Positions 10,214-36,981 of a stretch of DNA of 64,000 bases are shown here, one piece after another (positions within the stretch are counted from its first letter, which is position 1; every line of letters starts with the position of its first letter). The notes beneath the pieces were generated by a model that did no database searches, was not told the origin of the DNA, and worked only from the letters and a program-made list of their open reading frames with translations. The DNA lies in assembly GCA_964599375.1 (NCBI GenBank), contig CAZREW010000017.1, forward strand, positions 3,926-67,925. The letters are read 5' to 3'. This stretch comes from an uncultured bacterium. GTDB lineage: Bacteria > Krumholzibacteriota > Krumholzibacteriia > Krumholzibacteriales > Krumholzibacteriaceae. Made by a program: the position numbers and the translations under genes.

Positions 10214-10218
10214 TAAGG

Positions 10219-15404: not shown

Positions 15405-16684
15405 GAACGATAAGGATGCTACTTCAGGCGGCGGCGGTGCTCCTTTCGATAGCCGTAGTGATCCTGGCGGCGACTTCGGACGCTTCCGCCGATTTCCTCG
15501 TCCCGATGGACCTCTCGCAGTCGAACCATCTGAAGGCGTACGGCCTCGCCTACCACGTCCTCGAGCGCGGGGGGAACGTCCGGTGGCTGCTCAACTACCG
15601 CGGCGGCTCCTTCCTTATGCCCGAGACGGCCGGCCTGACGCTCGAGGCGCAGGCGCTCGGGGTGAGGATGGAAAGGGTCGACGGGTCCGCGATCGCGGCG
15701 ATACTGAAGGAGATAGACGGGGGGAACATGGATGTGGTCCTCCTCGAGAAGGCGCCCAGGATCGCGATCTACGCGCCGCCGAACAAGCAGCCGTGGGACG
15801 ACGCCGTGATGATGGCCCTCGAGTACGCCGGCATCCCTTACAAGATCGTCTACGACCGCGAGGTCCTCGCCGGGGAGCTCCAGCTCTACGACTGGCTCCA
15901 CCTCCACCACGAGGATTTCACCGGCCAGTACGGGAAGTTCTACCGAGGCTACCAGACCGCCGAGTGGTACATAAGGCAGCAGATCCTCTTCGAGGAGATC
16001 GCGAAGTCGCTCGGGTACGACAAGGTCTCCGACGAGAAGAAGGCGGTCGCGGAGATGATCCGCGAGTACGTGCGCGCGGGGGGGTTCCTGTTCGCGATGT
16101 GCTCGGCCTGCGACACGGTCGACCTCGCCCTGGCCGCCCACGGGATAGACATCGTGCCGCGGCAGTTCGACCACGACGGGACGACGCCTCTCTGCCAGGA
16201 AAAACTCGATTACTCGAGATGCTTCGCGTTCGAGGGGTTCACGCTCGAGATGAACCCGATGGTGTACGAGTTCTCCGATATAGACATGACGATGGAGGCG
16301 GCCGCGCGCGGCGAGGGGAACGACTGGTTCACCCTCTTCGAGTTCTCCGCGAAGCACGACCCGGTGCCGACGATGCTCGTCCAGGACCATGTCCCGGTCA
16401 TAAAGGGGTTCATGGGGCAGACGACCTCGTTCCGCAAGTCGCTGCTGAAAAAGAAGGTCCTTGTGCTCGGCGAGGTGAAGGGATCGGACGAGGCGCGCTA
16501 CATACACGGGAACTTCGGCAAGGGGACATTCACGTTCTTCGGCGGCCACGACCCCGAGGACTACCAGCACTTCGTCGGCGACCCCCCGACCGACCTCGAC
16601 CTCTACCCGAACTCGCCGGGATACAGGCTGATACTGAACAACATCCTCTTCCCAGCGGCGAGAAAGAAGGAGCAGAAGACCTGA
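15401..16684 (+). CDS. secreted protein with probable class-I glutamine-amidotransferase-like (ThuA/DUF4159-like) fold
   Basis: ATGA overlap with the TPR gene. Signal peptide MRTIRMLLQAAAVLLSIAVVILAATSDASA. The alpha/beta pattern includes a conserved Cys (FLFAMCSACDT). The fold call is inference. Confidence 0.5.
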   Translation: MRTIRMLLQAAAVLLSIAVVILAATSDASADFLVPMDLSQSNHLKAYGLAYHVLERGGNVRWLLNYRGGSFLMPETAGLTLEAQALGVRMERVDGSAIAAILKEIDGGNMDVVLLEKAPRIAIYAPPNKQPWDDAVMMALEYAGIPYKIVYDREVLAGELQLYDWLHLHHEDFTGQYGKFYRGYQTAEWYIRQQILFEEIAKSLGYDKVSDEKKAVAEMIREYVRAGGFLFAMCSACDTVDLALAAHGIDIVPRQFDHDGTTPLCQEKLDYSRCFAFEGFTLEMNPMVYEFSDIDMTMEAAARGEGNDWFTLFEFSAKHDPVPTMLVQDHVPVIKGFMGQTTSFRKSLLKKKVLVLGEVKGSDEARYIHGNFGKGTFTFFGGHDPEDYQHFVGDPPTDLDLYPNSPGYRLILNNILFPAARKKEQKT

Positions 16685-17772
16685 TGGGATCCCTGCCTGT
16701 CAAAGCAGTCCCCGCCGACGCGAGGGAGATATTCGCGCTGATCGTCTCCTGCCGTGACGCCATGCGGGGGTCGGGGATGGAGCAATGGCCCGATTTCTAC
16801 CCCGACCTCGATACCGTCAGGGACGACATATCGCGGGGGGCCCTGTGGATATACCGCGACGGTGGCCCGATCGTCGCCGCCATGACGGTCGACGACATCC
16901 AGCCCGGGCCGTACGACGGGATCGAATGGAAGTACGGCGGGCTGTACATCTGCGTCCACCGCCTCGCCGTCGACCCGGCAAGTCAGAGGGAGGGGATAGC
17001 GGGCCGGATGATGGCGTTCGCCGAGGAGGAGGCTCTCCGCAGGGGGCGCAGATCGGTCCGGCTCGACACTTACGGGCTCAACACTGCGGCGGTGAGGTTC
17101 TACGAGGGTCTCGGTTACAGGCGAAGGGGGACCATACACCTCCCCAAGAAGGAGGGAGAGTACATCTGCTTCGAGAAGAGCCTTGCGCCCTTCCCTCCGG
17201 ACCGGTTCCGCGCGCTCGTCTCGGGAAGCAGGAGCGTCCGCAGGTTCAGGGAGGACGTCCCGGTCAGCAGAGAGATGCTCGAGGAGCTCGCCGGGCTGGC
17301 AAGGCTCGCCCCGTCGGGGGGGAACAAGCAGCCGCTAAAATTCATGCTCTCGTCGGGGGAGCCACGAAACGGGATGATATTCCCCCACCTGCGCTGGGCG
17401 GGGTACATGCAGGACTGGGACGGTCCCGCCGAGGGGGAGAGGCCTGCGGCCTACATCGTCATCCTCGGAGATACGGAGATCACCGAGAGCTTCGGCACCG
17501 ATCACGGCATATCGGCGCAGACGATCATGCTCGGCGCCGCCTCGATGGGGCTCGCCGGGTGCATAGTCGGGTCGGTGGACCGCAAGGGGCTGCGCGTGGT
17601 CCTAGGAATACCGGTCAGTTACGAGATACTCTACGTCCTCGCGCTCGGGTACCCGGCAGAAGAGGTCGTCATCGAGGAAGTCAGGGAAGGCGACATCAGG
17701 TACTGGCGCTCCGGGGACGGGGTACATCACGTGCCGAAACGGTCCCTCAACGAGATCCTGTTCGAACCGTAA
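16684..17772 (+). CDS. GNAT acetyltransferase fused to a nitroreductase-family domain
   Basis: ATG 16684 shares its A with the upstream TGA. N-terminal half is GNAT (RLAVDPASQREGIAGRMMAFAEEEALRRGRRSVRLDT, acetyl-CoA site). C-terminal half is nitroreductase-like (VRRFREDVPVS...GGNKQP...GYPAEE). The 729-aa ORF 15583-17772 is an out-of-frame extension. Confidence 0.7.
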   Translation: MGSLPVKAVPADAREIFALIVSCRDAMRGSGMEQWPDFYPDLDTVRDDISRGALWIYRDGGPIVAAMTVDDIQPGPYDGIEWKYGGLYICVHRLAVDPASQREGIAGRMMAFAEEEALRRGRRSVRLDTYGLNTAAVRFYEGLGYRRRGTIHLPKKEGEYICFEKSLAPFPPDRFRALVSGSRSVRRFREDVPVSREMLEELAGLARLAPSGGNKQPLKFMLSSGEPRNGMIFPHLRWAGYMQDWDGPAEGERPAAYIVILGDTEITESFGTDHGISAQTIMLGAASMGLAGCIVGSVDRKGLRVVLGIPVSYEILYVLALGYPAEEVVIEEVREGDIRYWRSGDGVHHVPKRSLNEILFEP

Positions 17773-22893: not shown

Positions 22894-23862
22894 GTGCACT
22901 TCCGGCTCGACTTCTCGACCGTCGGTCAGGCCGTCCAGAAGGTCGTGACCTCCAACGTCTCAGACGTGTACGCGATGGGGGGAGAGCCTTACGGGATAGT
23001 CTTCACCGCGGGGCTGCCGGAGAGCTGCGGGGAGGAGGACCTAGTCTCGATCGTCGACGGGCTGCAAAGGGCCTGCGCCGCCTACGGCATCAGGCTCTGC
23101 GGCGGCGACACCGTCCTTTCGCCGGCCCGCTACTTCTTCGATGTTGCCATAATAGGATCGGTGCCCGTGGGGTTCGCGCCTTTCCGGCGCGGCGGGGCGC
23201 GGCCCGGCGACAGGCTCGTCCTCTTTGGCGAAGTCGGAGGCTCGCTCGCCGGGCTGAGGCTGCTCGAGGGGATCACAGGGCCCGGGCAGGCGGAGCCCCT
23301 CGACCGGCTCCTGCCGCCTCAGGCCGGCAGGGCCTGTCTTCTCGAGGCGGCCCGTACGCTCGCGCTGGACAGCACGGCGGCCGGCTTCTCGGCGATATGC
23401 GCGGAAAAGGGCCTGGACGCGGGCGCGCAGGCTGCGCTGGCGATGATAGAGAGGCACGTCGCGCCGCTGGCGCACAAGCCCTCGGTGAACGGCTCGCCGG
23501 AGTGGGCGCCGATGGTCATGGCGATGATAGACATAAGCGACGGTCTAGGCAGGGACCTCGCGACGCTCTGCGCGGAGAGCGGAGTGGGAGCGGTCGTCTC
23601 CGCGGAGGCGGTCCCCGTTCCCGCGCCACTCGCGGGCGCGATTGAGGGCGGTCGCGAGAAGCTGATCCGGTTCGCGCTGTCGAGCGGCGAGGAGTATGTC
23701 GCGCTCGCCGCCCTGAGCCCGGGCCCCGTCCCACCGGGCGCTGTCGTCATAGGCGCCGTCACCGAGGAAGCGGGCGGGCTGCTGATGGAGGAACCCGACG
23801 GTGGGATCAGAAGGCTCCCGACGTTGGGATACGAACACGAATTCCGGGAGAGTGACGAATGA
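22894..23862 (+). CDS. thiL: thiamine-monophosphate kinase
   Basis: AIR-synthase-related fold. Annotated from the first canonical start (GTG 22894). Homology clearly continues upstream: ERDVIGFLRDSFPEAGLGDDTAVID at 22771-22845 matches the ThiL N-terminus. See the finding on this region. Confidence 0.8.
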   Translation: MHFRLDFSTVGQAVQKVVTSNVSDVYAMGGEPYGIVFTAGLPESCGEEDLVSIVDGLQRACAAYGIRLCGGDTVLSPARYFFDVAIIGSVPVGFAPFRRGGARPGDRLVLFGEVGGSLAGLRLLEGITGPGQAEPLDRLLPPQAGRACLLEAARTLALDSTAAGFSAICAEKGLDAGAQAALAMIERHVAPLAHKPSVNGSPEWAPMVMAMIDISDGLGRDLATLCAESGVGAVVSAEAVPVPAPLAGAIEGGREKLIRFALSSGEEYVALAALSPGPVPPGAVVIGAVTEEAGGLLMEEPDGGIRRLPTLGYEHEFRESDE

Positions 23863-24566
23863 AATACGATCTCGAGCCTGGCTTCATGATCGCCGGCAAG
23901 TACGAGGTCATCGATAAGCTCGGATCCGGCTGGGAGGGAGAGGTATACCGCGTAAAGGAGAAGGCGATAGGCGTCGAGCGCGCCGCCAAGCTCTTCTACC
24001 CGCGGGCCGATTCACGGAACAGGGCGACAAAGTTCTACGCGCGCAAGCTTCACAAGCTGCGCCACTGCCCGATCCTGATCCAGTACCATACGGGCGAGAG
24101 GATCGCGATCGACGGCGAGAAGGTCAACGTCCTGATCTCGGAGTACGTGGAGGGAGAGATCCTCGCCTCCTTCGTCAGGCGCCAGCCGGGCAGGAAGCTT
24201 ACGCCGTTCGAGGGGCTTCACCTGCTGCACGAGCTCTCGGTCGGTGTCGAGGTGATACACAGGGCGCGCGAATACCACGGCGACCTGCACGACGACAACA
24301 TCATCATCAGGCGCAAGGGCCTCTCGTTCAACGTAAAGGTCGTCGACATGTTCAACTGGGGCACTCCCGGCGCGGAGAACTACAAGGACGACGTCTGCGA
24401 CCTCATCAGGATCTTCTACGACTGCATCGGGGGCAAGAGCACTTACTGGAAGCAGTCGCCCGGGATCAAGTACATCGTCTCCGGCCTGAAAAGGTCGCTG
24501 ATCACGGAAAAGTTCAGGACAGCCGGTCATCTGCGACGGTATATCGAGACGATGGAATGGGAGTGA
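23859..24566 (+). CDS. small atypical protein-kinase-fold protein, Bud32/RIO/Kdo-kinase-like
   Basis: ATGA overlap with thiL. Gly loop LGSGWEGEVYRV, Lys AAKLF, hinge ISEYVEG, catalytic loop HGDLHDDNIII, DMF (DFG-like). No activation segment after DFG, as in Bud32/RIO. Confidence 0.6.
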   Translation: MKYDLEPGFMIAGKYEVIDKLGSGWEGEVYRVKEKAIGVERAAKLFYPRADSRNRATKFYARKLHKLRHCPILIQYHTGERIAIDGEKVNVLISEYVEGEILASFVRRQPGRKLTPFEGLHLLHELSVGVEVIHRAREYHGDLHDDNIIIRRKGLSFNVKVVDMFNWGTPGAENYKDDVCDLIRIFYDCIGGKSTYWKQSPGIKYIVSGLKRSLITEKFRTAGHLRRYIETMEWE

Positions 24567-24575
24567 CGCCACAGG

Positions 24576-25208
24576 ATGCTCATCTACATGATCAGGCACG
24601 GAAGGACGGACTGGAACGACCGGCGCAGGATAATGGGGCGCGAGCAGGTGCCGCTCAACGCCGCCGGCCGCGAGATGGTCGAGGCGGTAGCCGGGCATCT
24701 CTCAGGAGAGGGGATCGCGGCGGTCTACACGGGGACGCTCGCGCGGACACGGGAGTCGGCCGGGATACTCGCCTCGGCGTGGGGCGCCGAGCTCATCGAG
24801 GAGCCACGGCTCGACGAGTCCGGATACGAAAAGTGGGTCGGCATGACCTACTACGAGCTCACCGGGGACCGCGATTTCGAACTCTACACGAAACGGCCTA
24901 CCGAGTCGCGTTTCTCCGAGGGCGAGAATATGGCGGGGATACAGGAGCGCGCGCTGGCCGCAGTCGACAGGATCGCCTCCGAGAGACGCGGCGTCAAGAC
25001 TGCGCTCGTCTCGCATGCCGATGTGATCAAGCCCGTGATCACCCACTACCTTGGGATGGATCTCGACACGATGCACAGGCTGGCGGTCGCGAACGCCTCG
25101 GTCACCGTCCTCGACCTGGGCTACCCGGGCAGCCCCCGGATCAGGTATATGAACCTGATGCCGTGGAAATGGAAGAAGGGCCTGACCGACCCGCCGTCCC
25201 CCGAGTGA
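24576..25208 (+). CDS. histidine phosphatase (phosphoglycerate-mutase-like) family protein
   Basis: RHGRTDWN catalytic motif at the N-terminus and a C-terminal His (SHADVI). Confidence 0.8.
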   Translation: MLIYMIRHGRTDWNDRRRIMGREQVPLNAAGREMVEAVAGHLSGEGIAAVYTGTLARTRESAGILASAWGAELIEEPRLDESGYEKWVGMTYYELTGDRDFELYTKRPTESRFSEGENMAGIQERALAAVDRIASERRGVKTALVSHADVIKPVITHYLGMDLDTMHRLAVANASVTVLDLGYPGSPRIRYMNLMPWKWKKGLTDPPSPE

Positions 25209-25252
25209 CGAAGCGGGTTGCGCCGGCGCCGTGGCCTGGTTAATTTCTGATT

Positions 25253-26260
25253 ATGAATCTTTACCTCGGCATAGAGACCTCGTGCGACGACACCTCGTGC
25301 GCGATCTATTCACCAGAAGAGGGCCTGATCGCCTACCGGACCGCCGCCCAGCTCGACCACGCGAAGTACGGCGGCGTCGTGCCGGAGATCGCCTCGCGCA
25401 CGCACATGAAAACGATCCTTCCCCTCTACGAGACGGTGATGGAGGAGGCCGGGGCAGGGCTCGGCGGCCTTTCTGGGATCGGGGTGACCAACGGACCCGG
25501 GTTGACCGGGTCGCTCCTGGTCGGGCTCTCGTTCGCCAAGGCTCTAGCTTACGGGAGCGGAGTGCCGCTCGCCGGCATCCACCACATCGAGGGGCACATA
25601 CTCGCCAACGCGATCGAGGGGCCTATGGGGACGCCGGCCATAGTGCTCGTGGTCTCGGGAGGGCACACACAGCTCTTCAGCGTCGAGAAGCCGGGCAGGT
25701 ACGAGCTCCTCGGCGGGACGAGGGACGACGCGGCGGGCGAGGCGTTCGACAAGATCGGGAAGATACTCGGCCTCCCGTACCCGGGCGGGCCTTCGATAGA
25801 GAAGGCCGCGCGCTCCGGCGACCCGGCCGCCTTCGATTTTCCACGCGCGATGCGCGGCTCGGGCAGGTGCGACTTCTCTTTCTCGGGGCTCAAGACCGCG
25901 GTCAGGCTTAAGGTCGAGGAGCTCGGTCGCCTCACCGAGCAGGCCGTCGCAGATGTCGCCGCCTCGGCCCAGGAGGCGATCGTCGACGCACTCGCGATCA
26001 AGTCGGTCATGGCGGTTGAGATGACGGCTGTCTCGCGCTTCTACCTCGCCGGCGGGGTCGCGGCCAACGGGAGGCTCCGCGAGGTGATCAGCGAGCGGAT
26101 CGGAGCGGCGGGCGCGCAGGTGTCGTGGCCGCCGGCAAGGTTCTGCACGGACAATGCCGCGATGATCGCGTGCGCCGCCTGGCACCATCTGTCGGCAGGC
26201 CGCGCTGACGGGCTCGACCTGAACACCTTTCCCAGAGGCGGGCTCGAGTCCTGGGCGTGA
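25253..26260 (+). CDS. tsaD: tRNA N6-adenosine threonylcarbamoyltransferase
   Basis: LGIETSCDDT, HHIEGH and GGVAAN motifs of Kae1/TsaD. Confidence 0.9.
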   Translation: MNLYLGIETSCDDTSCAIYSPEEGLIAYRTAAQLDHAKYGGVVPEIASRTHMKTILPLYETVMEEAGAGLGGLSGIGVTNGPGLTGSLLVGLSFAKALAYGSGVPLAGIHHIEGHILANAIEGPMGTPAIVLVVSGGHTQLFSVEKPGRYELLGGTRDDAAGEAFDKIGKILGLPYPGGPSIEKAARSGDPAAFDFPRAMRGSGRCDFSFSGLKTAVRLKVEELGRLTEQAVADVAASAQEAIVDALAIKSVMAVEMTAVSRFYLAGGVAANGRLREVISERIGAAGAQVSWPPARFCTDNAAMIACAAWHHLSAGRADGLDLNTFPRGGLESWA

Positions 26261-26538
26261 GGCATATCTCCACATTTTCCCCGGCCTTACATTTATTTCT
26301 TACCGATCCGATAGTGCATTGTCGATATTGCATTATCCGACATTTCCTTTGCATTCCCTCCCCATCCCGGCGCCCGGACAGATGCGTGAACCCGCCGTAT
26401 AAGGGCTTTTCAGGTAGCGGGTTAACCGGTTTCCGATACTCCCGCTCCTTGGCATATTAATTGCCATTCATCTCGTGGCGATCGGCCGAAGACCCGATCT
26501 GAGCGGAGGGGAACTACCCTTTTCGGGGATTTTGATGG

Positions 26539-27519
26539 ATGAGCGCAGGGAAAGATAACGACGTCCGCAGGGTGCTCGTCGTCGACGACGAAGAGCACAT
26601 CAGGCGGATACTGAAGTTTCAGCTCGAGAAGAACGGCTACGAGGTCGTCACTGCGGAGAACGGCGAGGAAGCGTTGAAGTTTGTCAGGCGTTCGATGCCC
26701 GACCTCATTCTGCTCGACCTGATGATGCCGAAGATCGACGGCTTCGAGGTCTGCCGGCAGCTCAGGGCTGACTTCCAGACGAGCCAGATCCCGATAATCA
26801 TGCTTACCGCCAAGAGCGACCTCCCCGACAAGATCAAGGGGCTTCAGGGGGGCGCCAACGATTACCTCGTCAAGCCGTACTCGAACGAAGAGCTCATGCT
26901 GCGAGTCAACAACGTGCTCGAATGGAGCCAGAACCAGAAGAACGCCAATCCGCTCACGGGGTTCGCGGGGAACAAGGCGATCGAGAAGGAACTGGCCCGG
27001 AGAATAGAGCGCAACGAGCCGTTCGCGTTCCTCTACATCGACATCGACAATTTCAAGGCATACAACGATTACTACGGATATCAGAAGGGCGACGAGTCGA
27101 TCCTCTTTCTCGCCGACATCATCACCGAGGCTGTCAACTCGCTCGGTGGCAGGAAGGATTTCGTCGGCCATATCGGTGGCGATGATTTCGTCATCGTCAC
27201 TTCTCTAGACCGGGCCGAGTTCATAGGGCGCCACATCATCGATGAGTTCGACAAGGGCTCCCTGGTCCTGATGCACGAGGAAGACATCCGCAAGGGGTAC
27301 CTCGAGATCAGGAACCGCCTCGGAGAGATCAAGAGGGTGCCGCTGATGTCACTGACGATAGCGCTTGTGCTCAACGACGGCGAACGGCTGAAGCATTTCG
27401 CACAGGTCAGCGATATCGCGTCCGAGCTCAAGAAATTCGGGAAGGGTATGACAGGAAGCGTCGTCGTGAGAGAGAGGCGCAAGGAGATCTCGGAGCCAGC
27501 CGAGATCGACAGCCTGTAA
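26539..27519 (+). CDS. response regulator with REC plus GGDEF-type domain (non-canonical GGDDF)
   Basis: REC: VLVVDDEEHIRR...DLILLDLMMP...LTAK. GGDEF domain has active-site GGDDF at nt 27175-27189 and no RxxD I-site. Confidence 0.85.
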   Translation: MSAGKDNDVRRVLVVDDEEHIRRILKFQLEKNGYEVVTAENGEEALKFVRRSMPDLILLDLMMPKIDGFEVCRQLRADFQTSQIPIIMLTAKSDLPDKIKGLQGGANDYLVKPYSNEELMLRVNNVLEWSQNQKNANPLTGFAGNKAIEKELARRIERNEPFAFLYIDIDNFKAYNDYYGYQKGDESILFLADIITEAVNSLGGRKDFVGHIGGDDFVIVTSLDRAEFIGRHIIDEFDKGSLVLMHEEDIRKGYLEIRNRLGEIKRVPLMSLTIALVLNDGERLKHFAQVSDIASELKKFGKGMTGSVVVRERRKEISEPAEIDSL

Positions 27520-27531
27520 CCGGAGGGCGCA

Positions 27532-28371
27532 GTGGCCGGAACGACCTACACGGACAGAGGCCGCGCGGCGGGGACGGATCCCGCCGGACAGAGCGAGACG
27601 GATCTTCTCAGGGAGGAGATCGCCCGCTACCGGAGCGTCTTCGAATCGGCCAGCATGATCGTCGGCCACGAGCTGGTAAAGCCGCTCACCTCTATAAGCG
27701 GATACGTGGAACTTCTCGAGGACCGGTTCGCCGCTTTCACCGACGGGGACGCGAAGAGGTATTTCATGCGACTGAGGGAATCGATCGGCCAGCTCGAGGA
27801 GCTCGTCGAATCGTTCGTCCAGCTGCTCAGGTTCAACCGGGTCGACGACCAGGCCGGTGTGCTCCAGAGCGTAGACCTGCGCGCGCTCGTCGAGAAGCTC
27901 AGGCCGGGCGAAGGCGAGGGCCGGGCCAGGCTGAGAAACGCGGTCGACCCGGCGATGCCGCCACTGCTGCTTCGAAGGAAACATGTCGAGGTCGTCCTAG
28001 ACAACCTGATCTCCAACGCCCTGAAGCACAGCGGGGGTGGCGCCCCCGTGACCGTCGAGGCGGAGGTCATAAAGGAAAGGCGCGGCAACACCGCCGAGAG
28101 CGTCCTGATCGTCAACGTGACGGACGCCGGGGTAGGGATACCGGAGAACGAGATAGAGGAGATCTTCAATCCGTTCTACAGGGGAGCTTCGGACCGGCGC
28201 TCCGGCGGGCTAGGGCTCGGGCTGGCTCTCGTGAAGAACATCATGGATATCATGAGCGGAGAGGTCCGGGTAAGCAGCGCTCCCGGCAAGGGCACAAGGG
28301 TGACAATAAGCATCCCGCTCAATGGAGACGACAGGCCCGGAGAATCGAAAGAGCAGAAAAATGGCCGTTAA
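27532..28371 (+). CDS. soluble histidine kinase (HisKA plus HATPase_c, no sensor domain)
   Basis: H-box IVGHELVKPLTSISGYVELL, N-box LDNLISNALKH, G-boxes DAGVGI and GGLGLGLALVKNI. Confidence 0.8.
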   Translation: MAGTTYTDRGRAAGTDPAGQSETDLLREEIARYRSVFESASMIVGHELVKPLTSISGYVELLEDRFAAFTDGDAKRYFMRLRESIGQLEELVESFVQLLRFNRVDDQAGVLQSVDLRALVEKLRPGEGEGRARLRNAVDPAMPPLLLRRKHVEVVLDNLISNALKHSGGGAPVTVEAEVIKERRGNTAESVLIVNVTDAGVGIPENEIEEIFNPFYRGASDRRSGGLGLGLALVKNIMDIMSGEVRVSSAPGKGTRVTISIPLNGDDRPGESKEQKNGR

Positions 28372-31354
28372 CAGGAAAAATGAAGTAAAACCCCCGCCGC
28401 TCGTCAGCATTCCCCAGGCCAGGCTGATCGAGCTTGTCGCCATGTTCGCGATACTCTACGTCGCGAGGGAGATAGCAGGATTCACCTATCATACCGGGTT
28501 CGTAGTCGGCGTGTTTGTCGCCGCGGCGCTGTTAAACGTCGGCATATCATCGGTGCGGGGAATAATGAGGAACCACGGCAGTGCGGTCGCCGGCCAGCGG
28601 GTCTGGAGCTGGCTGGCAGTCATGATAGACCTGACCACCGTGCTCTCGCTCATCTATCTCACCGGCACGGTTGCCAGCCCGTTCATGTTCCTCGTCGTGA
28701 TACCCCTCTTCTTCGCGGGGAGGCTGCTGCCGGCGATGACGGCAGGGTTCGCCGTCACGTTCGCCACCGTGGCCGTGATCGCGGCGCTGGGGCTGCTCGA
28801 GCTCAAGGGAGTCATCCCCCATCATTCAGTCCTCGGCAGCGGCATGGAAGGCCCAGCGGAGTCACATTACCTTATTGGCACACTGCTCGTAGTCGGTGGC
28901 TTCATGAGCCTGATGACCTACCTGTTCAGCACCTTCTATGATAACTTCCAGGTCTATTTCCGTGACGCGGAGAACCGCATCGATTCCTCGCGCAAGAGAA
29001 TACTCGAGCTGACACGTCTCTACGACATCAGCCTCGGGATCAACTCCGTCATAAGTCTAGATACGCTGCTCAAGATGGTATGCAAGGAAGTCACCCTCCT
29101 GCTCAGGCGCCCCTGGGCCGCCGTCGCCCTGATATCGCATAAGGGCGAGGTTGTCAAGTTCATCGAGCTCGGGGCGGGAGGAACGGAAGCAGAAGGGTCA
29201 CTGGGGAAGCTCGACGAGGATCCGCTCTTGACGGAAATGATCGGGAGCGAGGACGGCCTCGCGGTCGAGGATGCCAGCGGGCACGAGACTCTGGGGCAGT
29301 CACGCATAATAAAGGAAAGAAAACTCGTGCCGGTCCTCGCGGTCCCCGTGCTGTCGGGACACGATTCGCAGGGCGTGCTTTTCGTGGGCGACCGCAGGAA
29401 GGACCCGTTCACCGACGAGGAAGTCAAGCTCATGTCGATACTTTCCGGCCAGATCTCGACGGCCATCGACAAGAGCCGGCTCTATGAAGTCATGACCGGA
29501 AGGATCAGGCGCCTCGAGCGGGAGAACGAGGCCCTGCAGAACTCCAACAACCTCAAGATGGGTTACATATCGCACGTCTCGCATGAGCTCAAGACGCCGC
29601 TCACATCGATAAAGGCGTACGTCGAGTCGCTCGCCGAGAATATGGGCGATCCGGGTTTCACCGAGGGGAAGGATTTCCTCGGCGTGATATCGAGCGAGAC
29701 GGACAGGCTCATACGCCTGGTCAACAAGGTGCTGGACATATCCAAGATAGAGTTCGGCCAGAGGACGCTCCGCCGCAGGCTCTTCGACCTGCTCGGCCTG
29801 GTGAGCGAAGTCGACACCTCGATGCAACCGTACTTCAGCGAAAAGAACCTTCACCTGCTGATCGATTTCCCCGACGACCTGCCGCTTGTTGACGGCGACG
29901 AGGATCTTGTCAAGCAGGTGCTGATCAACCTGATCGGGAACGCGGTGAAGTTCTCGCCGGCGGGGTCGAGGATATTCCTCACCGCGGAGGAGGAGGCCGT
30001 ATCGATCAAGATCACCGTCCGCGACGAGGGAGTCGGCATCCCGAAAGACGACCTTAAGAACATATTCAGGCAGTTCTACCAGGTCGGAACGGACTCGTCC
30101 GAGGGCGTTGGCCTCGGGCTCGCGATAGTGAAGAACATAGTGGAGCAGCACGGTGGGTATATGCATGTCACCAGCGAGATGGGCGAGGGAAGCTCATTTA
30201 CCTTCACTCTGCCGAAGGAGCACCACTTCAACGACCTGCTCGGGTACATATTCGATTCCATGGATGCCCGCGAGGAGGTCCAGGAGATGTTCCAGCTCGC
30301 GGTAAAGGTAGTCGCAGAGATACTGTCGGCGAAGATCGTCTCGATGATGCTTCTCGACCGTGAGCGCAAGGAGCTCTTCATAAAGGTCGCCTACGGGCTC
30401 GATGAGAGGATAGTAGAGAACACGCGAGTGGCGGTGGGCAAGAGCATTGCCGGCCGGGTCGCCCAGACGGGCGAACCCCTGCTTATAGAGGATATAGAGG
30501 AAACTGGACTCTCCTCGATGAGATCGAACAATCCGCAGTACGAGACGAAATCCCTGCTCAGCGTCCCGCTGGTGGTCGGCTCGACGGTCATCGGCGTCAT
30601 AAACGCGAACAACAAGACATCGGGCAGGCCGTTTACCGAAGACGACATGATACTGCTGCAGAGCATAAGCGAAAGGATATCTAAGGTCATAGAGAGGATG
30701 CGCACGGCCGAGGACTTCCATGCCTTTCTGCGTGAGACCATCTCGTCTCTCAACTCGCTTCTGGAGATATGCGAGTCCGACGAAGCCGGCATGCGAAACA
30801 TGCTCGTCGAATGGTCGGTCAAGGTCGCCAGGAAGCTCGGGCTTTCCGAGAAGGAGATCCAGGTAATCCAGTTCGTCTCGAGCGTCCACGACGTGGGGAT
30901 GACGACAATCGGCGACGACATACTCTCGAAGACGCTTGATCTGACCCCCGAGGAGATCGACGAGATCCGCAAGCATCCGCAGCGTGGAGCGGCGATAATG
31001 CGGCCGCTCGAGTTTGTCGAGGCGGTAAGCCAGACTATGCTCTTCCATCACGAGAGGATGGACGGCAAGGGGTACCCGATGGGTCTCAAGGGGGACCAGA
31101 TACCGATAGGCGCCAGGATAATCTCAGTGCTCGACGCGTGGGTGTCGATGGTGAGCGAACGGCCGTTCAGGAAAGCGCTTGCCCTCGAGGATTCGATCAA
31201 TGAGCTCGTGGACAACGCCGGGAAACAGTTCGACCGCGAAGTCATCGGCGCCTTCATGGAGGTGCTCGTCGACGAGGGGCGGATAGAGATAGAGGAGTAT
31301 GCGGGAATAAGGGACAGGCTGAGGTTCGGCGGTAGGCACCACGCCATGCCGTAG
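28361..31354 (+). CDS. multi-TM sensor: GAF - HisKA - HATPase_c - GAF - HD-GYP fusion protein
   Basis: Starts 11 nt before the upstream HK stop. About 6 TM helices (aa 30-205). GAF1 at nt ~29000-29480. H-box ISHVSHELKTPLTSIKAY at ~29570-29620. HATPase G-box GVGLGLAIVKNIV. GAF2 at nt ~30270-30690. HD-GYP with HDVGM at 30887-30892 and HHERMDGKGYP. Confidence 0.85.
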   Translation: MAVNRKNEVKPPPLVSIPQARLIELVAMFAILYVAREIAGFTYHTGFVVGVFVAAALLNVGISSVRGIMRNHGSAVAGQRVWSWLAVMIDLTTVLSLIYLTGTVASPFMFLVVIPLFFAGRLLPAMTAGFAVTFATVAVIAALGLLELKGVIPHHSVLGSGMEGPAESHYLIGTLLVVGGFMSLMTYLFSTFYDNFQVYFRDAENRIDSSRKRILELTRLYDISLGINSVISLDTLLKMVCKEVTLLLRRPWAAVALISHKGEVVKFIELGAGGTEAEGSLGKLDEDPLLTEMIGSEDGLAVEDASGHETLGQSRIIKERKLVPVLAVPVLSGHDSQGVLFVGDRRKDPFTDEEVKLMSILSGQISTAIDKSRLYEVMTGRIRRLERENEALQNSNNLKMGYISHVSHELKTPLTSIKAYVESLAENMGDPGFTEGKDFLGVISSETDRLIRLVNKVLDISKIEFGQRTLRRRLFDLLGLVSEVDTSMQPYFSEKNLHLLIDFPDDLPLVDGDEDLVKQVLINLIGNAVKFSPAGSRIFLTAEEEAVSIKITVRDEGVGIPKDDLKNIFRQFYQVGTDSSEGVGLGLAIVKNIVEQHGGYMHVTSEMGEGSSFTFTLPKEHHFNDLLGYIFDSMDAREEVQEMFQLAVKVVAEILSAKIVSMMLLDRERKELFIKVAYGLDERIVENTRVAVGKSIAGRVAQTGEPLLIEDIEETGLSSMRSNNPQYETKSLLSVPLVVGSTVIGVINANNKTSGRPFTEDDMILLQSISERISKVIERMRTAEDFHAFLRETISSLNSLLEICESDEAGMRNMLVEWSVKVARKLGLSEKEIQVIQFVSSVHDVGMTTIGDDILSKTLDLTPEEIDEIRKHPQRGAAIMRPLEFVEAVSQTMLFHHERMDGKGYPMGLKGDQIPIGARIISVLDAWVSMVSERPFRKALALEDSINELVDNAGKQFDREVIGAFMEVLVDEGRIEIEEYAGIRDRLRFGGRHHAMP

Positions 31355-31367
31355 ACAGGAGCATTCG

Positions 31368-34300
31368 ATGCTGAGGGCAGGCGCGGAATACATCTTTACC
31401 GGCGAAGCAGGAGCGGTGACGTATCTATTCGTCCTGCTCCTTCTCTCGCTCTCATGCGTTTGCAGGGCGGTCTCCGCACACAGAGAAGGGGGCCGCAAGG
31501 AGCTCGGCGCGCTCGCGTCCGGGCTGTCCCTGCTTTTCGTCTCCCGCGCGCTCGGCGTCTACTCGATGAGGTCGGGCGTCGAGGCCCTCTCGCTCCTGGC
31601 GGCCGCCGCGGGACTGGCGGGGCTCTACCTGATGATCACATCGATAGTGTCCGGCAGGAGGGAGGGCGACTATGCGCCTCTGAGCAGGACGGTCCTCGCG
31701 GGAGGGCTGACGGCCGGTGTCGCCGTGAGTGCCGTGGCGCTCCTGCTGCTTCCAGGCTCGGGTTCGGGCCCGGCCGCCATCAGTACGGGACATATCTTCG
31801 CCGCTGCAGTTCCGGTGGGTCTTCTCGCCGGATTGCTGATCGAGAGTATGCGCAGGCCGGCAGGCGCCCGCCGCGCGGGCGGGTCGCTCATCGCCGCCGC
31901 TGCCGCCGTCTTGCTTGCGGCGGCTTCAACGGTCGCCGTCCTGGCTTGGACAGGCTTTGCCGGAGGCGGGTCGTTCGTCCCGCAGCTCTGGGCCCTTCTC
32001 GACGTGTCGGGGATCTTCCTCTTCCTCGCATGGCTCACACTCGAGCCTGCAGGGAGGAGGGCGTCCTGCTCCCCCGCCCTCTGCGGCGCCGCCCCGTCAG
32101 AGGCAAGGCTGCCAGAAGGCCAGGGGCGCCGGGTGCTGGAGATCAGCAGGGCGATCGTCTCGGGAGACAGGGAGACGGATATATACAGGGAGATAGCCGC
32201 CGCGATCCGCGAGGAGACAGGCTCCGGGTTCGTCGTCGTGCGCGCCTCCGGCGAGGGCGACGAGAGGTTCGAAGTAAAGGGATTTTCGGCCGAAGGGCAC
32301 GATTCGGGGTCCCCCGCCTTCTCGATGAGCCTGACGAGAGAGAGGCTTGAGCAGTACCTCGATCCTCAGGACGGGGCGTCCGGCCTGCTCGTACTCGACG
32401 AGAAGACGCTCGGCGACGACAGGGAGGCCTTCGTGCCCGCGATGCTGGCCGCCGACAGGGGGGCCGTAGCCGTGATGCCGGTCGAGGACGCCGGTGTCAG
32501 CAGGGCCGTGGTGATCGCCGGCTTTTTCCGCGACGGGCTGCCCGAGGAGGTCTCCGGCGTGATCGAGGCATACAGGATAAACATCATCCAGATCGCCGGG
32601 CGGGAGGAATGGGCGAACAGGACGAGGAAAAGGGAGAAGGAGCTCACCGTCTGCAAGGAAGAGCTCGAGAGCGTCAATCAGATGAAAAGCAACTTCCTCT
32701 CCATCGTCTCGCACGAGCTCAGGACCCCGCTGACCTCGGTGAAGGCATACGCCGAGACGCTGATGGACAACGTGGGATCGATAGAGACAGAGACGGTGCG
32801 GGATTTCCTGAAGGTGATGGGAGAGGAGAACGACCGCGTCATCTCACTGGTCGACAACATACTGAACTACTCGTGCATGGAGAGCGGGCACCTCAAGGTC
32901 GAGAAGACCGAATGCGATCTTGGCGAGATCATAGAGGAGGTGCACGCCGGGCTGGAGAACCGCATGCTCACGGAGCGTGTCAACAGCGAGATCAAGCTGC
33001 CGCGGGGACGGGTTGTAGTCGACGCCGACCGGGAGCTGATCCGCCAGATGCTCCACAACCTGATGAGCAACGCGATAAAGTTCACGCCCCAGGGCGGGCT
33101 GGTCACGATAGTCCTCGAGGAGGAAGCCTCCGCGGCGAGGATAGTTGTGCAGGATACGGGGCGGGGGATCCCGGAGGACCAGCTCGAGAAGATATTCGAG
33201 AGATTCCACCAGGTCGACGCCAGCGACACGCGCGAGCACGGCGGATCCGGCCTCGGCCTTGCCATTTGCAAGAACATCGTCGAGTGGCACGACGGACATA
33301 TCTGGGTGGAGAACGTCAAGGAAGCGGGAGCTAAGTTCACCGTGATGCTTCCGATGAAGGACATCATCGTGCGGCACGCCGTCTCCTCGGGATTCATCGG
33401 ATCAGTGCGCTTCGAGAGGGAGAGGTATCTCACCCTGCTCGTAGAGATGCTGTCCGGGTTCCTGCAGGCGAGAAAGGCCTCGATCATGCTGTTCGATCCA
33501 CGCGACCGGACACTGCAGGTAATCGCGGCCAAGGGGCTCGATCCCGAGTTCGTCCAGAATTCCCGCGTCGAAGTGGGAGAGCGCATATCCGGGAAGGTCT
33601 TCGCCGACGAACAGTCCCTTCATGTATTCGATATCGAGAAGGATTCGAAGGTGTCGAGAAGCAACAACACCGCCTATTACTGGACCAAATCGTTTATATC
33701 GGTACCACTGCGCGACGGCGACGACGTCATCGGCGTCCTCAACGTCGCCGACCATGTGGAAAACAGGGGATTCACTCAGGCTGACCGCGAGATCCTCGAA
33801 TCGCTCGGGCCGGTCATCTCGGGAATGGTCAAGAAGCTGGGCGCTTTTGAGACTGTCTCCTCGAACTTCGAGAAGCTGAAGGAGGCGATGAAGGGAATCC
33901 TGCACATAAGGGAGGTCTGGGGTGCGAGGAACATGCTTAACTTCACGATGATCGCCATGGCGGTCGCCCGCAGGCTCAACCTCGACGAGAAGTCGCTGAC
34001 AGCGCTCAGGATGGGGATGAGCCTGTACGATCTGGGCATGATGAAGATCCCGAGGTCGCTCAGGGTGAAGAAGGAAAGCCTGAGCGAGAAGGAATGGGAG
34101 AAGCTCAGGGAGCATCCAGACCTCGGCTACTCGCTCGTCTCCCCGATGGGGCTCGACGAGAGGATCATGAAGATGGTACGCGGCCATCACGAGCATTACG
34201 ATGGCAGCGGGTACCCGGCAGGGCTGATAAAGGACGAGATCCCTATAGAGGCGAGGATCCTGGGCGTCGTCGATTCGTTCCGGGCCCTTATAACGCCAGG

Positions 34301-34553
34301 GCCGTACAGGCGCTGCTTCTCGGTGGACGAGGCGAAGAACGAGATAATACAGGGCGCGGGCACGAGGTTCGACCCGAAGGTGGTCGGGGCGTTTGTCAAG
34401 TCGCTCCACGACCTGGGCGCCCGCGAAGACAGGTGTGAGCTCGTGCTCGACGCGGTCGAGAAGGAGCTCGAGATGAAGAAGATGGAAAACGAAAAGACAG
34501 CAGAGACAGAAGTAAATGAAGAGATAGCGTTTGCAGTCAAGGAGGACGCCTGA
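31368..34553 (+). CDS. multi-TM sensor paralog: HisKA - HATPase_c - GAF - HD-GYP-like (HD replaced by YD) fusion protein
   Basis: About 7 TM helices (aa 1-225). H-box IVSHELRTPLTSVKAY at ~32690-32740. G-box GGSGLGLAICKNIV. GAF at nt ~33400-33830. HD-GYP region with YDLGM at 34026-34031 instead of HD, but HHEHYDGSGYP conserved. Acidic C-terminal tail. Confidence 0.85.
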   Translation: MLRAGAEYIFTGEAGAVTYLFVLLLLSLSCVCRAVSAHREGGRKELGALASGLSLLFVSRALGVYSMRSGVEALSLLAAAAGLAGLYLMITSIVSGRREGDYAPLSRTVLAGGLTAGVAVSAVALLLLPGSGSGPAAISTGHIFAAAVPVGLLAGLLIESMRRPAGARRAGGSLIAAAAAVLLAAASTVAVLAWTGFAGGGSFVPQLWALLDVSGIFLFLAWLTLEPAGRRASCSPALCGAAPSEARLPEGQGRRVLEISRAIVSGDRETDIYREIAAAIREETGSGFVVVRASGEGDERFEVKGFSAEGHDSGSPAFSMSLTRERLEQYLDPQDGASGLLVLDEKTLGDDREAFVPAMLAADRGAVAVMPVEDAGVSRAVVIAGFFRDGLPEEVSGVIEAYRINIIQIAGREEWANRTRKREKELTVCKEELESVNQMKSNFLSIVSHELRTPLTSVKAYAETLMDNVGSIETETVRDFLKVMGEENDRVISLVDNILNYSCMESGHLKVEKTECDLGEIIEEVHAGLENRMLTERVNSEIKLPRGRVVVDADRELIRQMLHNLMSNAIKFTPQGGLVTIVLEEEASAARIVVQDTGRGIPEDQLEKIFERFHQVDASDTREHGGSGLGLAICKNIVEWHDGHIWVENVKEAGAKFTVMLPMKDIIVRHAVSSGFIGSVRFERERYLTLLVEMLSGFLQARKASIMLFDPRDRTLQVIAAKGLDPEFVQNSRVEVGERISGKVFADEQSLHVFDIEKDSKVSRSNNTAYYWTKSFISVPLRDGDDVIGVLNVADHVENRGFTQADREILESLGPVISGMVKKLGAFETVSSNFEKLKEAMKGILHIREVWGARNMLNFTMIAMAVARRLNLDEKSLTALRMGMSLYDLGMMKIPRSLRVKKESLSEKEWEKLREHPDLGYSLVSPMGLDERIMKMVRGHHEHYDGSGYPAGLIKDEIPIEARILGVVDSFRALITPGPYRRCFSVDEAKNEIIQGAGTRFDPKVVGAFVKSLHDLGAREDRCELVLDAVEKELEMKKMENEKTAETEVNEEIAFAVKEDA

Positions 34554-34930
34554 TGGCAAAGGGCAAGATCCTCGTCGTAGACGATGAGGTCAACATAACG
34601 CAGATACTGGAGTTCAGCATAGGAGCGGAAGGGTACGAGGTAGTGACCGCCGCTAACGGCGAAGAGGCTATAGACAAGGCGCGCCGCGAGCAGCCCGACC
34701 TTATAATACTCGATGTCATGATGCCGAAGATCGACGGGTACGAAGCCTGCAGGATACTGAAGGCCAATCCGTTGACCAAGTCGATCCCGGTAGTCCTGCT
34801 CACCGCCAAGGGCAGGGACATCGACAAGAGACTCGGCTACGAGGTAGGCGCTACAGACTACATCATCAAGCCGTTCAGTCCCAACAAGCTGATAGACAGG
34901 ATCCACCAGCTGCTCGTGGGCACGAAATAG
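34553..34930 (+). CDS. single-domain (CheY-like) response regulator
   Basis: TGATG overlap with the upstream kinase. KILVVDDE...DLIILDVMMP...LLTAK...DYIIKPF. Confidence 0.9.
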   Translation: MAKGKILVVDDEVNITQILEFSIGAEGYEVVTAANGEEAIDKARREQPDLIILDVMMPKIDGYEACRILKANPLTKSIPVVLLTAKGRDIDKRLGYEVGATDYIIKPFSPNKLIDRIHQLLVGTK

Positions 34931-34977
34931 CATAACGGTTGCCCGGCGCGGCCGCCCGTCATATAATCCGCAACGAG

Positions 34978-36981
34978 ATGACGCCGCGCCGCGAAATACA
35001 CGGCTATGCCGAGATCGCACTTCCCGTTCCCGTGGACGGGACTTTTACCTATATGATCCCCGAAGAGATCCGCGAGGCGATCGCACCCGGTTGCCGCGTG
35101 ATGGTGCCGTTCGGCAGGAGGCGGATGACCGGCTACGTGATCTCGACACACTCGGATCCCCCCGGCGGGATGAAGATCAGGAACATATCCGCGCTCGTCG
35201 ACGACCAGCCGCTCATAACTGCCAGTCTCCTCGATCTCGCCGCATGGATGTCCGGATATTACGCGCACTCGATGGGCGAGGTGCTCAGGGCGGTCCTCCC
35301 CGCGGCGCTCAAGGGCCGTGGAAGGATAGCGGCCTCGGCGGCGGGCGACTCGATGTTTCCCGAGGACGAGCACCGTCCCGCTTTGACCGCGGGGCAGCAG
35401 GAGGCGTTCGAGGCCGTAAGGGCCTCGATCGGCAGGGGCGAGTTCGCGCGCTATCTCGTCTACGGCGTCACGGGGAGCGGCAAGACCGAGGTATACCTGA
35501 GGTGCATCGAGGAGGTCCTCGCGGCCGGGGGCAGGGCGATAGTGCTGATCCCCGAGATATCGCTGGTCCCGCAGACGACAGCGAGGTTCCGCAGGAGGTT
35601 CGGCGAGCGGGTGGCGGTCATCCACAGCAGGCTCACCGGGCCGCAGAGGGCCTCGATATGGAGGGACGCGGCGGCCGGCAGGGTCGATGTGGTCATCGGG
35701 GCGCGCTCGGCGGTATTCGTCCCGCTAAGGGACCTTCGCATGATCGTCATCGACGAGGAGCAGGACTCCTCTTTCAAGCAGCAGGAGAAACCCCATTACG
35801 GCGCAGTCGAGGTCGCCGAGTTCAGGGCTCGCTCGGAGAGCGCCGTGATGGTGACCGGCTCGGCTACTCCCTCGCTCGAATCATGGTACAGGTCTCAGAA
35901 GGGCCAGATAGAGAGATTCGTCCTCCCGAACCGTCCCGGCGCGGGCAGGCTCCCGCCCGTCGAAGTCATAGACATGAGGAAGAAGCGGGGCGGGATCTCG
36001 GAGAAGCTCCTCGATGCCCTCGATGTGTGCGTCTCGGCGGGGCGCCAGGCGATCGTGCTGATAAACCGGAGGGGATTCGCCAATTATCTCCAGTGCCCGA
36101 AGTGCGGATGGATCGGCAGGTGCCCGAACTGCTCGATATCGCTCACATGGCACAGCAGCGGCAGAAGGCTCGTCTGCCATTACTGCGGCTACAGCGGGGG
36201 CACGCCGGAGAAGTGCCCCGAGTGCGGCTCGTACGGGTTCGTGCGCCTCGGAGGGGGGACGCAGAAGATCGAGTCGGACCTGGCGAACCTGCTCCCCGGG
36301 GTGAGGATACTCAGGATGGACCTCGATACGACCGCCGGCAAGAGTGGGCACTCCGATATCCTAGAGAAGTTCGCCTCGGGCGGAGCCGACATACTTCTCG
36401 GCACGCAGATGGTCGCCAAGGGGCACCATTACCCGAACGTGACCGTGGTCGGGGTGCTCTCGGCGGACGCCGGCCTGAACTTCCCCGACTTCCGCGCCGC
36501 AGAGAGGACCTTCCAACTCCTCTCCCAGGCGGCGGGCAGGACGGGCAGGGGAAGCGAGGGGGGAAAGGTCTACATACAGACATATACTCCGGAGCACTTC
36601 ATATTCGATTATATCGTCAGGCACGATTACCCGGGGTTCGCGGGCAGAGAGCTCGCCTCGCGGGAGCAGTTCGCCTACCCCCCGGCCGGGCGGCTCATAC
36701 TGCTGACCGTGTCGGCCAGGACCCGTGATACGGCGATGAAGGGGGGCGAATCTGTCGCGGGGGCGGCCGCGGCGTCGGGGACGGTGGAAGAGTCCGGCAT
36801 CCTCGGGCCCGTCCCGGCTATGATAGAGAGGCTCAGGGGGATGTACAGGGTCCAGGTCCTGGTGCGCGCCGATATCGGCCCGGACGGGAAAAAGGCACTC
36901 GTCGGGGCATGCCGGGAGGCCCTTTCAGGGATGCGGGGGGCCGCCCTGCAGTGGGACGTCGATCCCCTCGATATCTTCTGA
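34978..36981 (+). CDS. priA: primosomal protein N'
   Basis: Walker A GVTGSGKT, DEEQD box, and the Cys4 zinc fingers CPKCGWIGRCPNCS and CHYCGY...CPECG. Confidence 0.9.
   Translation: MTPRREIHGYAEIALPVPVDGTFTYMIPEEIREAIAPGCRVMVPFGRRRMTGYVISTHSDPPGGMKIRNISALVDDQPLITASLLDLAAWMSGYYAHSMGEVLRAVLPAALKGRGRIAASAAGDSMFPEDEHRPALTAGQQEAFEAVRASIGRGEFARYLVYGVTGSGKTEVYLRCIEEVLAAGGRAIVLIPEISLVPQTTARFRRRFGERVAVIHSRLTGPQRASIWRDAAAGRVDVVIGARSAVFVPLRDLRMIVIDEEQDSSFKQQEKPHYGAVEVAEFRARSESAVMVTGSATPSLESWYRSQKGQIERFVLPNRPGAGRLPPVEVIDMRKKRGGISEKLLDALDVCVSAGRQAIVLINRRGFANYLQCPKCGWIGRCPNCSISLTWHSSGRRLVCHYCGYSGGTPEKCPECGSYGFVRLGGGTQKIESDLANLLPGVRILRMDLDTTAGKSGHSDILEKFASGGADILLGTQMVAKGHHYPNVTVVGVLSADAGLNFPDFRAAERTFQLLSQAAGRTGRGSEGGKVYIQTYTPEHFIFDYIVRHDYPGFAGRELASREQFAYPPAGRLILLTVSARTRDTAMKGGESVAGAAAASGTVEESGILGPVPAMIERLRGMYRVQVLVRADIGPDGKKALVGACREALSGMRGAALQWDVDPLDIF

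Follow-up and report, generated by a model that had tools for sequence, protein, structure and literature searches.

HD-GYP domains form the less understood class of cyclic di-GMP (c-di-GMP) phosphodiesterases, and in the architectures known so far they follow a receiver or a sensor domain. In PmGH of Persephonella marina (PDB 4MCW/4MDZ) the HD-GYP domain follows a GAF domain, the substitutions H189A, H221A and K225A each abolish activity, and the M-H metal pair has been proposed to hold the nucleophile (PMC4159591). Here we describe a cassette of five genes at positions 26539-34930 of a 64,000-nucleotide stretch of DNA (hereafter the window; contig CAZREW010000017.1 of assembly GCA_964599375.1, positions 3,926 to 67,925) from an uncultured bacterium of the Krumholzibacteriaceae, in which GAF-HD-GYP modules form the C-terminal parts of two tandem membrane histidine kinases, P3 (gene 3) and P4 (gene 4). 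The most interesting feature of these proteins is a rewrite of the HD-GYP active site, which was present in every fused protein examined and in no unfused kinase neighbour.

Other described systems share individual traits with this arrangement. CckA and ShkA are kinases whose kinase/phosphatase balance is set by c-di-GMP, bound on the catalytic and ATP-binding (CA) domain or on a pseudo-receiver; they offer the concept of a c-di-GMP-set kinase, but use no HD-GYP domain for binding. The RpfC/RpfG system also links a histidine kinase with an HD-GYP domain, and Xanthomonas RpfG likewise lacks H189, having Phe at this position (PMC4159591). For the RpfG of Lysobacter, a close relative of the Xanthomonas protein, phosphodiesterase activity has been reported (10.1101/2021.11.05.467447, PMC8463545). 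P3 and P4 differ in that no receiver (REC) domain lies between kinase and HD-GYP, the receivers of the operon carrying a cyclase or nothing, and since their HD-GYP domains are located on the transmitter itself, these could not be controlled by Asp phosphorylation in cis. Lysobacter RpfG is also physically coupled to the REC-GGDEF cyclase WspR and to the histidine kinases HtsH1-3 (PMC9758175, PMC8463545), but these contacts are made in trans between separate proteins, whereas here the kinase is covalently fused and the cyclase is an operon neighbour. Finally, DvhD of Desulfovibrio vulgaris (dCache-PAS-HD-GYP, PDB 9RBZ/9RC0) is a non-catalytic receptor whose N-terminal stalk helices shift when it binds c-di-GMP (PMC13090378); like P3 and P4 it has an HD-GYP domain with an altered metal site, and it was their third or fourth best PDB match.

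Histidine kinases fused to a variant HD-GYP domain

All five genes of the cassette lie on the + strand and are named here in cassette order: RR1 (26539..27519; Pfam Response_reg 1.6e-34 and GGDEF 3.6e-16), sHK (27532..28371, about 279 residues; HisKA and HATPase_c), P3 (28361..31354, 997 residues; GAF, HisKA, HATPase_c, GAF and HD_5, the last at 1.5e-32), P4 (31368..34553, 1061 residues; HisKA, HATPase_c, GAF and HD_5, the last at 2e-33) and RR2 (34553..34930; Response_reg only). The open reading frame (ORF) listing and Pfam confirmed this co-directional cluster at the coordinates, and with the domains and overlaps (11 nt between sHK and P3, 1 nt between P4 and RR2), that an initial sequence-only reading of the window had proposed, and the H-boxes and the HDVGM, YDLGM and GGDDF motifs it had quoted were located where it had placed them. 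Its assignment of the C-terminal domains to HD-GYP (the family of Pfam HD_5, PF13487, and PROSITE PS51832), rather than to a generic HD fold, also held, as their PDB matches were V-cGAP3 (the best, at 1e-25), PmGH (3e-22), DvhD, PA4781 and Bd1817 only. As it had further suggested, the fusion departs from the usual REC-HD-GYP order of the RpfG family, with no Response_reg match in P3 or P4. Both proteins instead have the order of the PmGH family, with a GAF domain immediately N-terminal to HD-GYP, here at the C-terminal end of a kinase. The last 360 residues of P4 and P3 matched the PmGH profile at 1e-30 and 1e-25, respectively, and Foldseek aligned about 390 columns at 26-27% identity; the difference from PmGH is that the module stands behind a complete membrane histidine kinase and is missing H189, E185/D183 and K225. 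The paralogy of P3 and P4 was upheld for everything from the dimerization and histidine phosphotransfer (DHp) domain onwards (36% identity over 614 residues, E 3e-114), while their N-terminal membrane parts are unrelated.

Active-site residues were compared in PmGH numbering, which profile alignments reproduced (chain index = residue number + 6). D222, H250, H276, H277, D305 and Y285 are kept in P3 and P4, as is the motif HHExxDGxGYP (HHERMDGKGYP at 31046-31078 in P3, HHEHYDGSGYP at 34185-34217 in P4). H221 is kept in P3, which reads HDVGM (30887-30901), and is replaced by Tyr in P4, which reads YDLGM (34026-34040); in both motifs Met takes the place of K225. At the position equivalent to H189, P3 has Met, within AGMRNML (30785-30805, by profile alignment), a position that is variable in its orthologues, while in P4 the residue is absent. 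Six of the seven PmGH metal ligands (H189, H221, D222, H250, H276, H277 and D305) are therefore found in P3 and five in P4. D183/E185 correspond to a conserved residue in neither protein, the KPG motif reads KTL in P3 and KKE in P4, and R314 is kept in P3 (RPFR, within 31157-31174) and is Gly in the clade of P4, where GPYR replaces RxY[K/R] (within 34296-34313). The conclusion on H189 draws on HMMER profile alignments and a His-frequency scan, MAFFT being unreliable against PmGH upstream of the HD motif; within the 75 residues upstream of that motif, the scan of the fused proteins found no column with His at 30% or more. The sequence-only reading had correctly noted HD in the first protein, YD in the second and Met for the HDxGK lysine in both, but the functional split that it drew from them, with hydrolysis possibly lost in the second protein, is too simple, as both are without the H189 ligand and K225.

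The same variant recurred throughout the 55 fused proteins compared. K225 was never Lys: all 31 HD-type proteins had Met at this position and all 23 YD-type proteins had Leu, Met or Ile, the latter also having Tyr for H221, where the HD type has His. By comparison, H250, H276, H277, E278, G282, G284, Y285, P286 and D305 were invariant and D222 and D281 nearly so, and R314 was kept in all 31 HD-type proteins and was Arg in 17 of the 23 YD-type proteins. As a control, unfused GAF-HD-GYP genes adjoining kinase and REC genes were examined, and 21 of 21 carried DAKDxYTxGHSERV and HDxGK. With no exception among the fused proteins examined, and with the other ligands invariant, the changes are not degeneration; the active-site variant is clearly under selection and tied to the fusion. 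Plain hydrolysis is probably not what the fused HD-GYP domain does, although the variant may still hydrolyse.

Distribution and synteny of the fusion

More than 120 full-length relatives of P3 were recovered (47-100% identity, with the same Pfam set and most of them 997 residues long), and where a source was named they came from Candidatus Krumholzibacteriota or Latescibacteria metagenome-assembled genomes (MAGs). Across the 14 Krumholzibacteria-type genome loci that were compared (L001-L014), the order tsaD, REC-GGDEF, small kinase, P3, P4, REC, priA and TPR protein was found wherever the contig was complete, and this synteny held down to 45% identity for P3. HD[VI]GM in P3, YD[LV]G[ML] in P4 and DF[VI]GHIGGDDFV in the cyclase were kept in every orthologue recovered.

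To place the fusion more broadly, 1.84 billion cluster representatives (50% identity) were searched exhaustively with HMMER and the best 150 were inspected. Approximately 53 of these 150 were single polypeptides in which an H-box was followed by a GYP motif about 450-500 residues on, and all 10 fused representatives that were scanned in Pfam contained HisKA, HATPase_c, GAF and HD_5, with N-termini that were membrane, GAF or REC. The fusions originated from MAGs labelled Krumholzibacteria or Latescibacteria, from Candidatus Eisenbacteria and from a Thermodesulfovibrionales MAG. The HisKA-HATPase-GAF-HD-GYP architecture is widespread in uncultured lineages, not rare. According to the sequence-only reading, its case would fall if the architecture proved common and already characterised; common it is, with these roughly 53 clusters among the best 150, but no paper describing or testing a kinase-HD-GYP fusion was found in a literature search outside which lay the architecture table of Galperin and Chou, which could list it. 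The parts are of known kinds (histidine kinase, PmGH-like GAF-HD-GYP and REC-GGDEF). Overall, the earlier interpretation is partly supported.

Beyond the Krumholzibacteria-type loci, the order on a Candidatus Eisenbacteria contig (L081) is tsaD, REC-GGDDF, a tandem pair of fused kinases and REC. Both of its kinases (10001-14985 of that locus) are of the HDxGM type and have an N-terminal GAF domain in place of membrane segments, and the small kinase is missing, which makes the YD paralog and the membrane sensors lineage-specific elaborations. Two metagenome contigs (L082 and L086) have the order HAD, YjeF, tsaD, REC-GGDEF, fused kinase, REC, fused kinase and REC, with L082 running on into priA, and GGDDF was confirmed in L081 and L082. 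The single-domain REC gene between the two fused kinases (10433-10819 in L082, 7586-7972 in L086) is an extra one, giving these contigs three receivers, compared with two receivers and a small kinase in the window. Orphan fused kinases without a neighbouring REC-GGDEF gene were also detected (L084 and L085). Planctomycetota and Nitrospirota loci (L019, L022, L066 and others), which matched query residues ~385-967, were considered as the same fusion and rejected, as the ORF listing resolved them into separate kinase, REC and GAF-HD-GYP genes; they became the canonical control described above.

The kinases, the cyclase and the receivers

All three kinases are of the HisKA type (class I), with HisKA and HATPase_c above the Pfam cut-offs and with H, N, G1, F and G2 boxes that are intact and conserved in orthologues. 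In sHK, HisKA (27661-27831; H-box GHELVKP at 27664-27684) and HATPase (27979-28323) are accompanied by neither a sensor domain in Pfam nor a hydrophobic segment in the hydropathy profile, and translation may in fact begin downstream of 27532. This small kinase was found in Krumholzibacteria-type loci only, being absent from L081, L082 and L086. Its H-box His was kept in 13 of 14 sequences (the window and 13 orthologues), with the N, G1, F and G2 boxes conserved. In the remaining Krumholzibacteria-type genome (L012, 10154-10975), Ser replaces the H-box His (VVGSEFIRPLTS) while the ATPase boxes are intact, and the protein may therefore be a pseudokinase in that lineage.

P3 begins with six transmembrane helices (28409-28927, from hydropathy and AlphaFold 2) that are distantly PilS-like, followed by GAF1 (29054-29470), HisKA (29567-29755; H-box SHELKTP at 29579), HATPase (29894-30220), GAF2 (residues 640-779, 30278-30697) and the HDxGM-type HD-GYP domain (30770-31243). 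Although the first ATG lies at 28322 (a 1010-residue ORF), a start at 28361 is favoured because most full-length orthologues have 997 residues. The membrane region gave a sub-threshold match to the PilS 6TM domain PF25323 in 12 of 13 orthologues (best E 1e-4), the window sequence itself reaching 18.3 bits, under the 27-bit gathering cut-off, and the AlphaFold 2 model of this region alone had a predicted local distance difference test (pLDDT) score of 63.7, a level at which a fold search would mean little. In the full-length model of P3 (pLDDT 71) long helices bridge the sixth transmembrane helix and GAF1, GAF1 and DHp, CA and GAF2, and GAF2 and HD-GYP, with continuous helices at 623-655 and 760-805 connecting the ATPase, GAF2 and HD-GYP. 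Foldseek matched the model to HK853-type kinase cores, to the ShkA structure 6qrj and, over the ~390 columns mentioned above, to PmGH. The best PDB matches of GAF2 were 5w10 and 1ykd, which we take to be the cAMP-binding GAF domains of Lcd1 and CyaB2, and its NK..F...D motif (30608-30646) is invariant across the P3 family.

P4 has approximately seven transmembrane helices (31392-32042, by hydropathy), for which no family was matched, and then some 190 cytoplasmic residues without a domain match ahead of the DHp; a GAF domain in this juxtamembrane stretch was considered and rejected, its profile-profile probability being just 3.9%. HisKA (32682-32888; H-box SHELRTP at 32709), HATPase (33027-33359), GAF (residues 684-819, 33417-33824) and the YDxG[LM]-type HD-GYP domain (33888-34382) follow. 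In P3, the order of transmembrane bundle, GAF (PAS in PilS), DHp and CA resembles PilS and the C-terminal half of KdpD, with NCBIfam aligning P3 336-634 (in the numbering of the 1010-residue ORF from 28322) to KdpD 595-884. P3 and P4 are nevertheless without the N-terminal domain of KdpD, and similarity to PilS is sub-threshold in P3, with no match for the membrane part of P4.

The cyclase RR1 comprises a REC domain (26572-26907), with its phospho-acceptor Asp in LLDLMMP (26710-26730), and a GGDEF-type domain (26950-27483). The Pfam match to the latter spans profile positions 5-88 of 161 only, and PDB diguanylate cyclase matches cover the first half, the second half being divergent and carrying an insertion. 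Aligned to solved cyclases, the block DIDNFKAYNDYYGYQKGD (27040-27093) fits the GTP-binding pattern DxDxFKxxNDxxGHxxGD, including the guanine-specific Asn and Asp. The Asp of QKGD presumably occupies the guanine-specific position D344 of PleD, which is Ser in Hypr enzymes, and in our own reading against the PleD register there is no RxxD inhibitory site, GRKD standing there with Gly at the Arg position. In place of the canonical [G/A/S]G[D/E]E[F/Y], RR1 has GGDDF (27175-27189), which was kept in all orthologues, and DF[VI]GH[IV]GGDDFV was conserved in every cassette examined. The sequence-only reading had counted this cyclase among the catalytically altered domains of the locus, but GGDDF does not prove it dead, since activity has been shown for one enzyme with the same motif variant, GSU1937 of Geobacter sulfurreducens, a Hypr synthase of cyclic GMP-AMP (cGAMP) (PMC8835794). 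The two differ otherwise, GSU1937 being a membrane protein with the Hypr serine and RR1 being fused to REC with the guanine-type Asp kept.

RR2 is a single-domain, CheY-like receiver (REC at 34568-34903, acceptor Asp in ILDVMMP at 34706-34726) and the most conserved protein of the cassette, with 69-98% identity across L001-L013 (tblastn). Both receivers are canonical, with the acceptor Asp, Thr and Lys all present, and their REC domains are about 50% identical to each other. At DHp positions H+7, +11 and +12, P3 and P4 both have T, A and Y, and sHK has T, G and Y; together with the REC identity, this is consistent with shared partners.

A candidate feedback loop and its alternatives

From the genes, domains, motifs, conservation and synteny described above we infer the activities, ligand and direction of coupling of a closed kinase/c-di-GMP feedback loop, in which the HD-GYP domain would bind the product of the cyclase and couple back to the kinase; we favour this reading tentatively, at a little under an even chance. 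Three HisKA kinases (sHK, and P3 and P4 with their unrelated membrane sensors) would feed two receivers, REC-GGDDF and the stand-alone REC. Membrane signals would set the state of the kinases, and REC-GGDDF, like WspR or PleD, would start to make c-di-GMP once phosphorylated. The GAF-HD-GYP modules of P3 and P4 would represent a distinct subtype in which D222, H250, H276, H277, D305 and the GYP tyrosine are kept, while the 'H-site' half of the metal centre, made up of H189, E185/D183 and K225, has gone, together with H221 in the second paralog. Such a module may be mainly a metal-dependent nucleotide-binding element, of which the HDxGM form may keep slow hydrolysis on a reduced metal centre and the YDxG[LM] form probably binds only. 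Nucleotide occupancy could then be relayed through the long helices that run from HD-GYP through GAF to the kinase core, much as c-di-GMP shifts the stalk of DvhD (PMC13090378), resetting the kinase/phosphatase balance. This would give a self-contained loop from kinase to cyclase to c-di-GMP and back to the kinase, tuned by two membrane inputs and possibly by a cyclic-mononucleotide input through the C-terminal GAF domain. In a bolder form, which we consider unlikely, the HDxGM and YDxG[LMI] domains would constitute a new functional HD-GYP class that exists only as a C-terminal extension of histidine kinases, has given up the H-site half and serves as a metal-dependent cyclic-dinucleotide sensor controlling the kinase in cis. 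In that form the tandem paralogs might be paired, one weakly catalytic and the other purely regulatory, possibly as a heterodimer.

Several points weigh against such a loop. Loss of H189 alone is no proof of inactivity, because RpfG is without this residue and its Lysobacter relative has been reported active. Five or six strictly kept metal ligands, together with R314, would suit a catalyst better than a pure receptor, and DvhD, which binds without catalysis, has lost both HD (SQ) and HH (MN), whereas P3 and P4 keep HH, D222, H250 and D305. With V-cGAP3 as the best PDB match, the modules could have 3'3'-cGAMP or some other molecule as their ligand. The wiring from kinases to receivers is read from gene order and just three DHp positions, and the pLDDT of the P3 model falls below 50 across the active-site region (845-904), making the geometry of the metal site unreadable from it.

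The retained ligands also underlie the first alternative, in which both HD-GYP domains are true phosphodiesterases with a binuclear (G-M) metal centre. P3 and P4 would then be bifunctional kinase/phosphodiesterases in a push-pull circuit, one state phosphorylating the cyclase and the other dephosphorylating it and degrading c-di-GMP, with the GAF domain setting phosphodiesterase activity. Consistent with this, D222, H250, H276, H277, D305, Y285 and the R314 of the HD type are invariant or nearly so in the 55 proteins, RpfG-type enzymes without H189 have been reported active (10.1101/2021.11.05.467447, PMC8463545), and binuclear HD-GYP enzymes are known, among them PA4781 (PDB 4r8z), which P3 and P4 matched here. 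We nevertheless regard it as doubtful, as H189A and K225A each kill the activity of PmGH, in which the M-H pair is proposed to carry the nucleophile (PMC4159591), and both residues are missing in every fused member, as is H221 in the YD lineage. The canonical residues of all 21 unfused kinase neighbours additionally speak for a link between the rewrite and a change of function.

It is less probable still, and in our view distinctly unlikely, that the HD-GYP modules are protein-interaction adaptors that dock REC-GGDDF, and possibly RR2, onto the kinase, with nucleotide chemistry secondary; one polypeptide would then fix the contacts seen in trans for RpfG with WspR and with hybrid kinases. Lysobacter RpfG does bind and inhibit unphosphorylated WspR, a REC-GGDEF protein, independently of its phosphodiesterase activity (PMC9758175), and also binds the hybrid kinases HtsH1-3 (PMC8463545), and REC-GGDDF accompanies the fused kinases in every cassette examined. 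However, a pure docking surface needs no invariant metal ligands, and the orphan fused kinases (L084 and L085) have no REC-GGDEF neighbour to dock.

That the modules act on or sense another nucleotide made by the GGDDF enzyme (3'3'-cGAMP, pGpG or a cyclic oligonucleotide) seems to us very improbable, since RR1 keeps the QKGD Asp that we take to be of the guanine type, even though the cGAMP-specific V-cGAP3 is the best PDB match of both modules and KPG has become KTL in P3 and KKE in P4. The one GGDDF enzyme with demonstrated activity is indeed a Hypr cGAMP synthase (PMC8835794), but the RxY/F-R motif of the HD-GYP domains fits the c-di-GMP-type RxY[K/R] and not the cGAMP-linked RxxQ/RxxN (10.1101/2021.11.05.467447).

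Genomic setting of the cassette

The cassette is flanked upstream by tsaD (25253..26260, +; TIGR03723 at 1.4e-117, above cut-off) and downstream by priA (34939..36981, +; Pfam PriA domains), both supported by synteny. As priA starts only 8 nt past RR2, it may be co-transcribed with the cassette. A spacer of 278 nt separates tsaD from RR1, and Rfam revealed no riboswitch or other RNA in this leader or elsewhere, with zero families at the gathering threshold in the whole window and, in 26200-26600, none even at E<=1. Promoter and terminator scans gave no signal exceeding shuffled background that would define the ends of the operon. The surrounding window carries housekeeping genes (ThiL, YjeF, Rho, RF1, PrmC, SelB, CoaBC and UDG), which suggests that the cassette is a core locus passed on vertically rather than an island. 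We regard it as a vertically inherited two-component/c-di-GMP unit of Krumholzibacteria-type genomes that is common to L081, L082 and L086.

Directly upstream of the bacterial-type tsaD, at 23859-25243, lie a 235-residue protein-kinase-like ORF and a 228-residue ORF without a family match. The former matched Pfam Pkinase at 8e-13 over profile positions 1-141 of 263 and gave faint, sub-threshold matches (E ~1e-3) to archaeal Kae1-associated Bud32 models; the pair is kept in L001 and absent from L082 and L086, where YjeF abuts tsaD. Elsewhere in the window, a 1619-residue protein (2263-7122) has HAMP, PAS, HisKA and HATPase_c confined to its last 400 residues, its approximately 1200 N-terminal residues being without a family match at E<=1e-5. 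A 1105-residue ORF (10219-13536), with no Pfam match at E<=1e-5, is flanked by a Fic-domain gene (9053-10213) and the gene of a TPR protein (13533-15404), and in a 729-residue ORF (15583-17772) a GNAT acetyltransferase domain is joined to a nitroreductase domain at the C-terminus. No tRNA gene was found in the 64 kb, GC skew was positive in every 2-kb window but one, and genes are nearly all on the + strand up to ~46 kb.

Implications

If the bolder form of the proposed feedback loop is correct, the cassette would represent a so far unrecognised route of c-di-GMP feedback onto two-component signalling, and one that several uncultured lineages have kept at a single housekeeping locus. The fusion-linked rewrite, with 55 fused variant and 21 unfused canonical proteins, provides a natural experiment on the residues that separate hydrolysis from sensing, and suggests a direct route by which a second messenger could reset a two-component kinase. 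Ultimately, the cassette may be a central regulatory circuit of lineages that are without cultured members.

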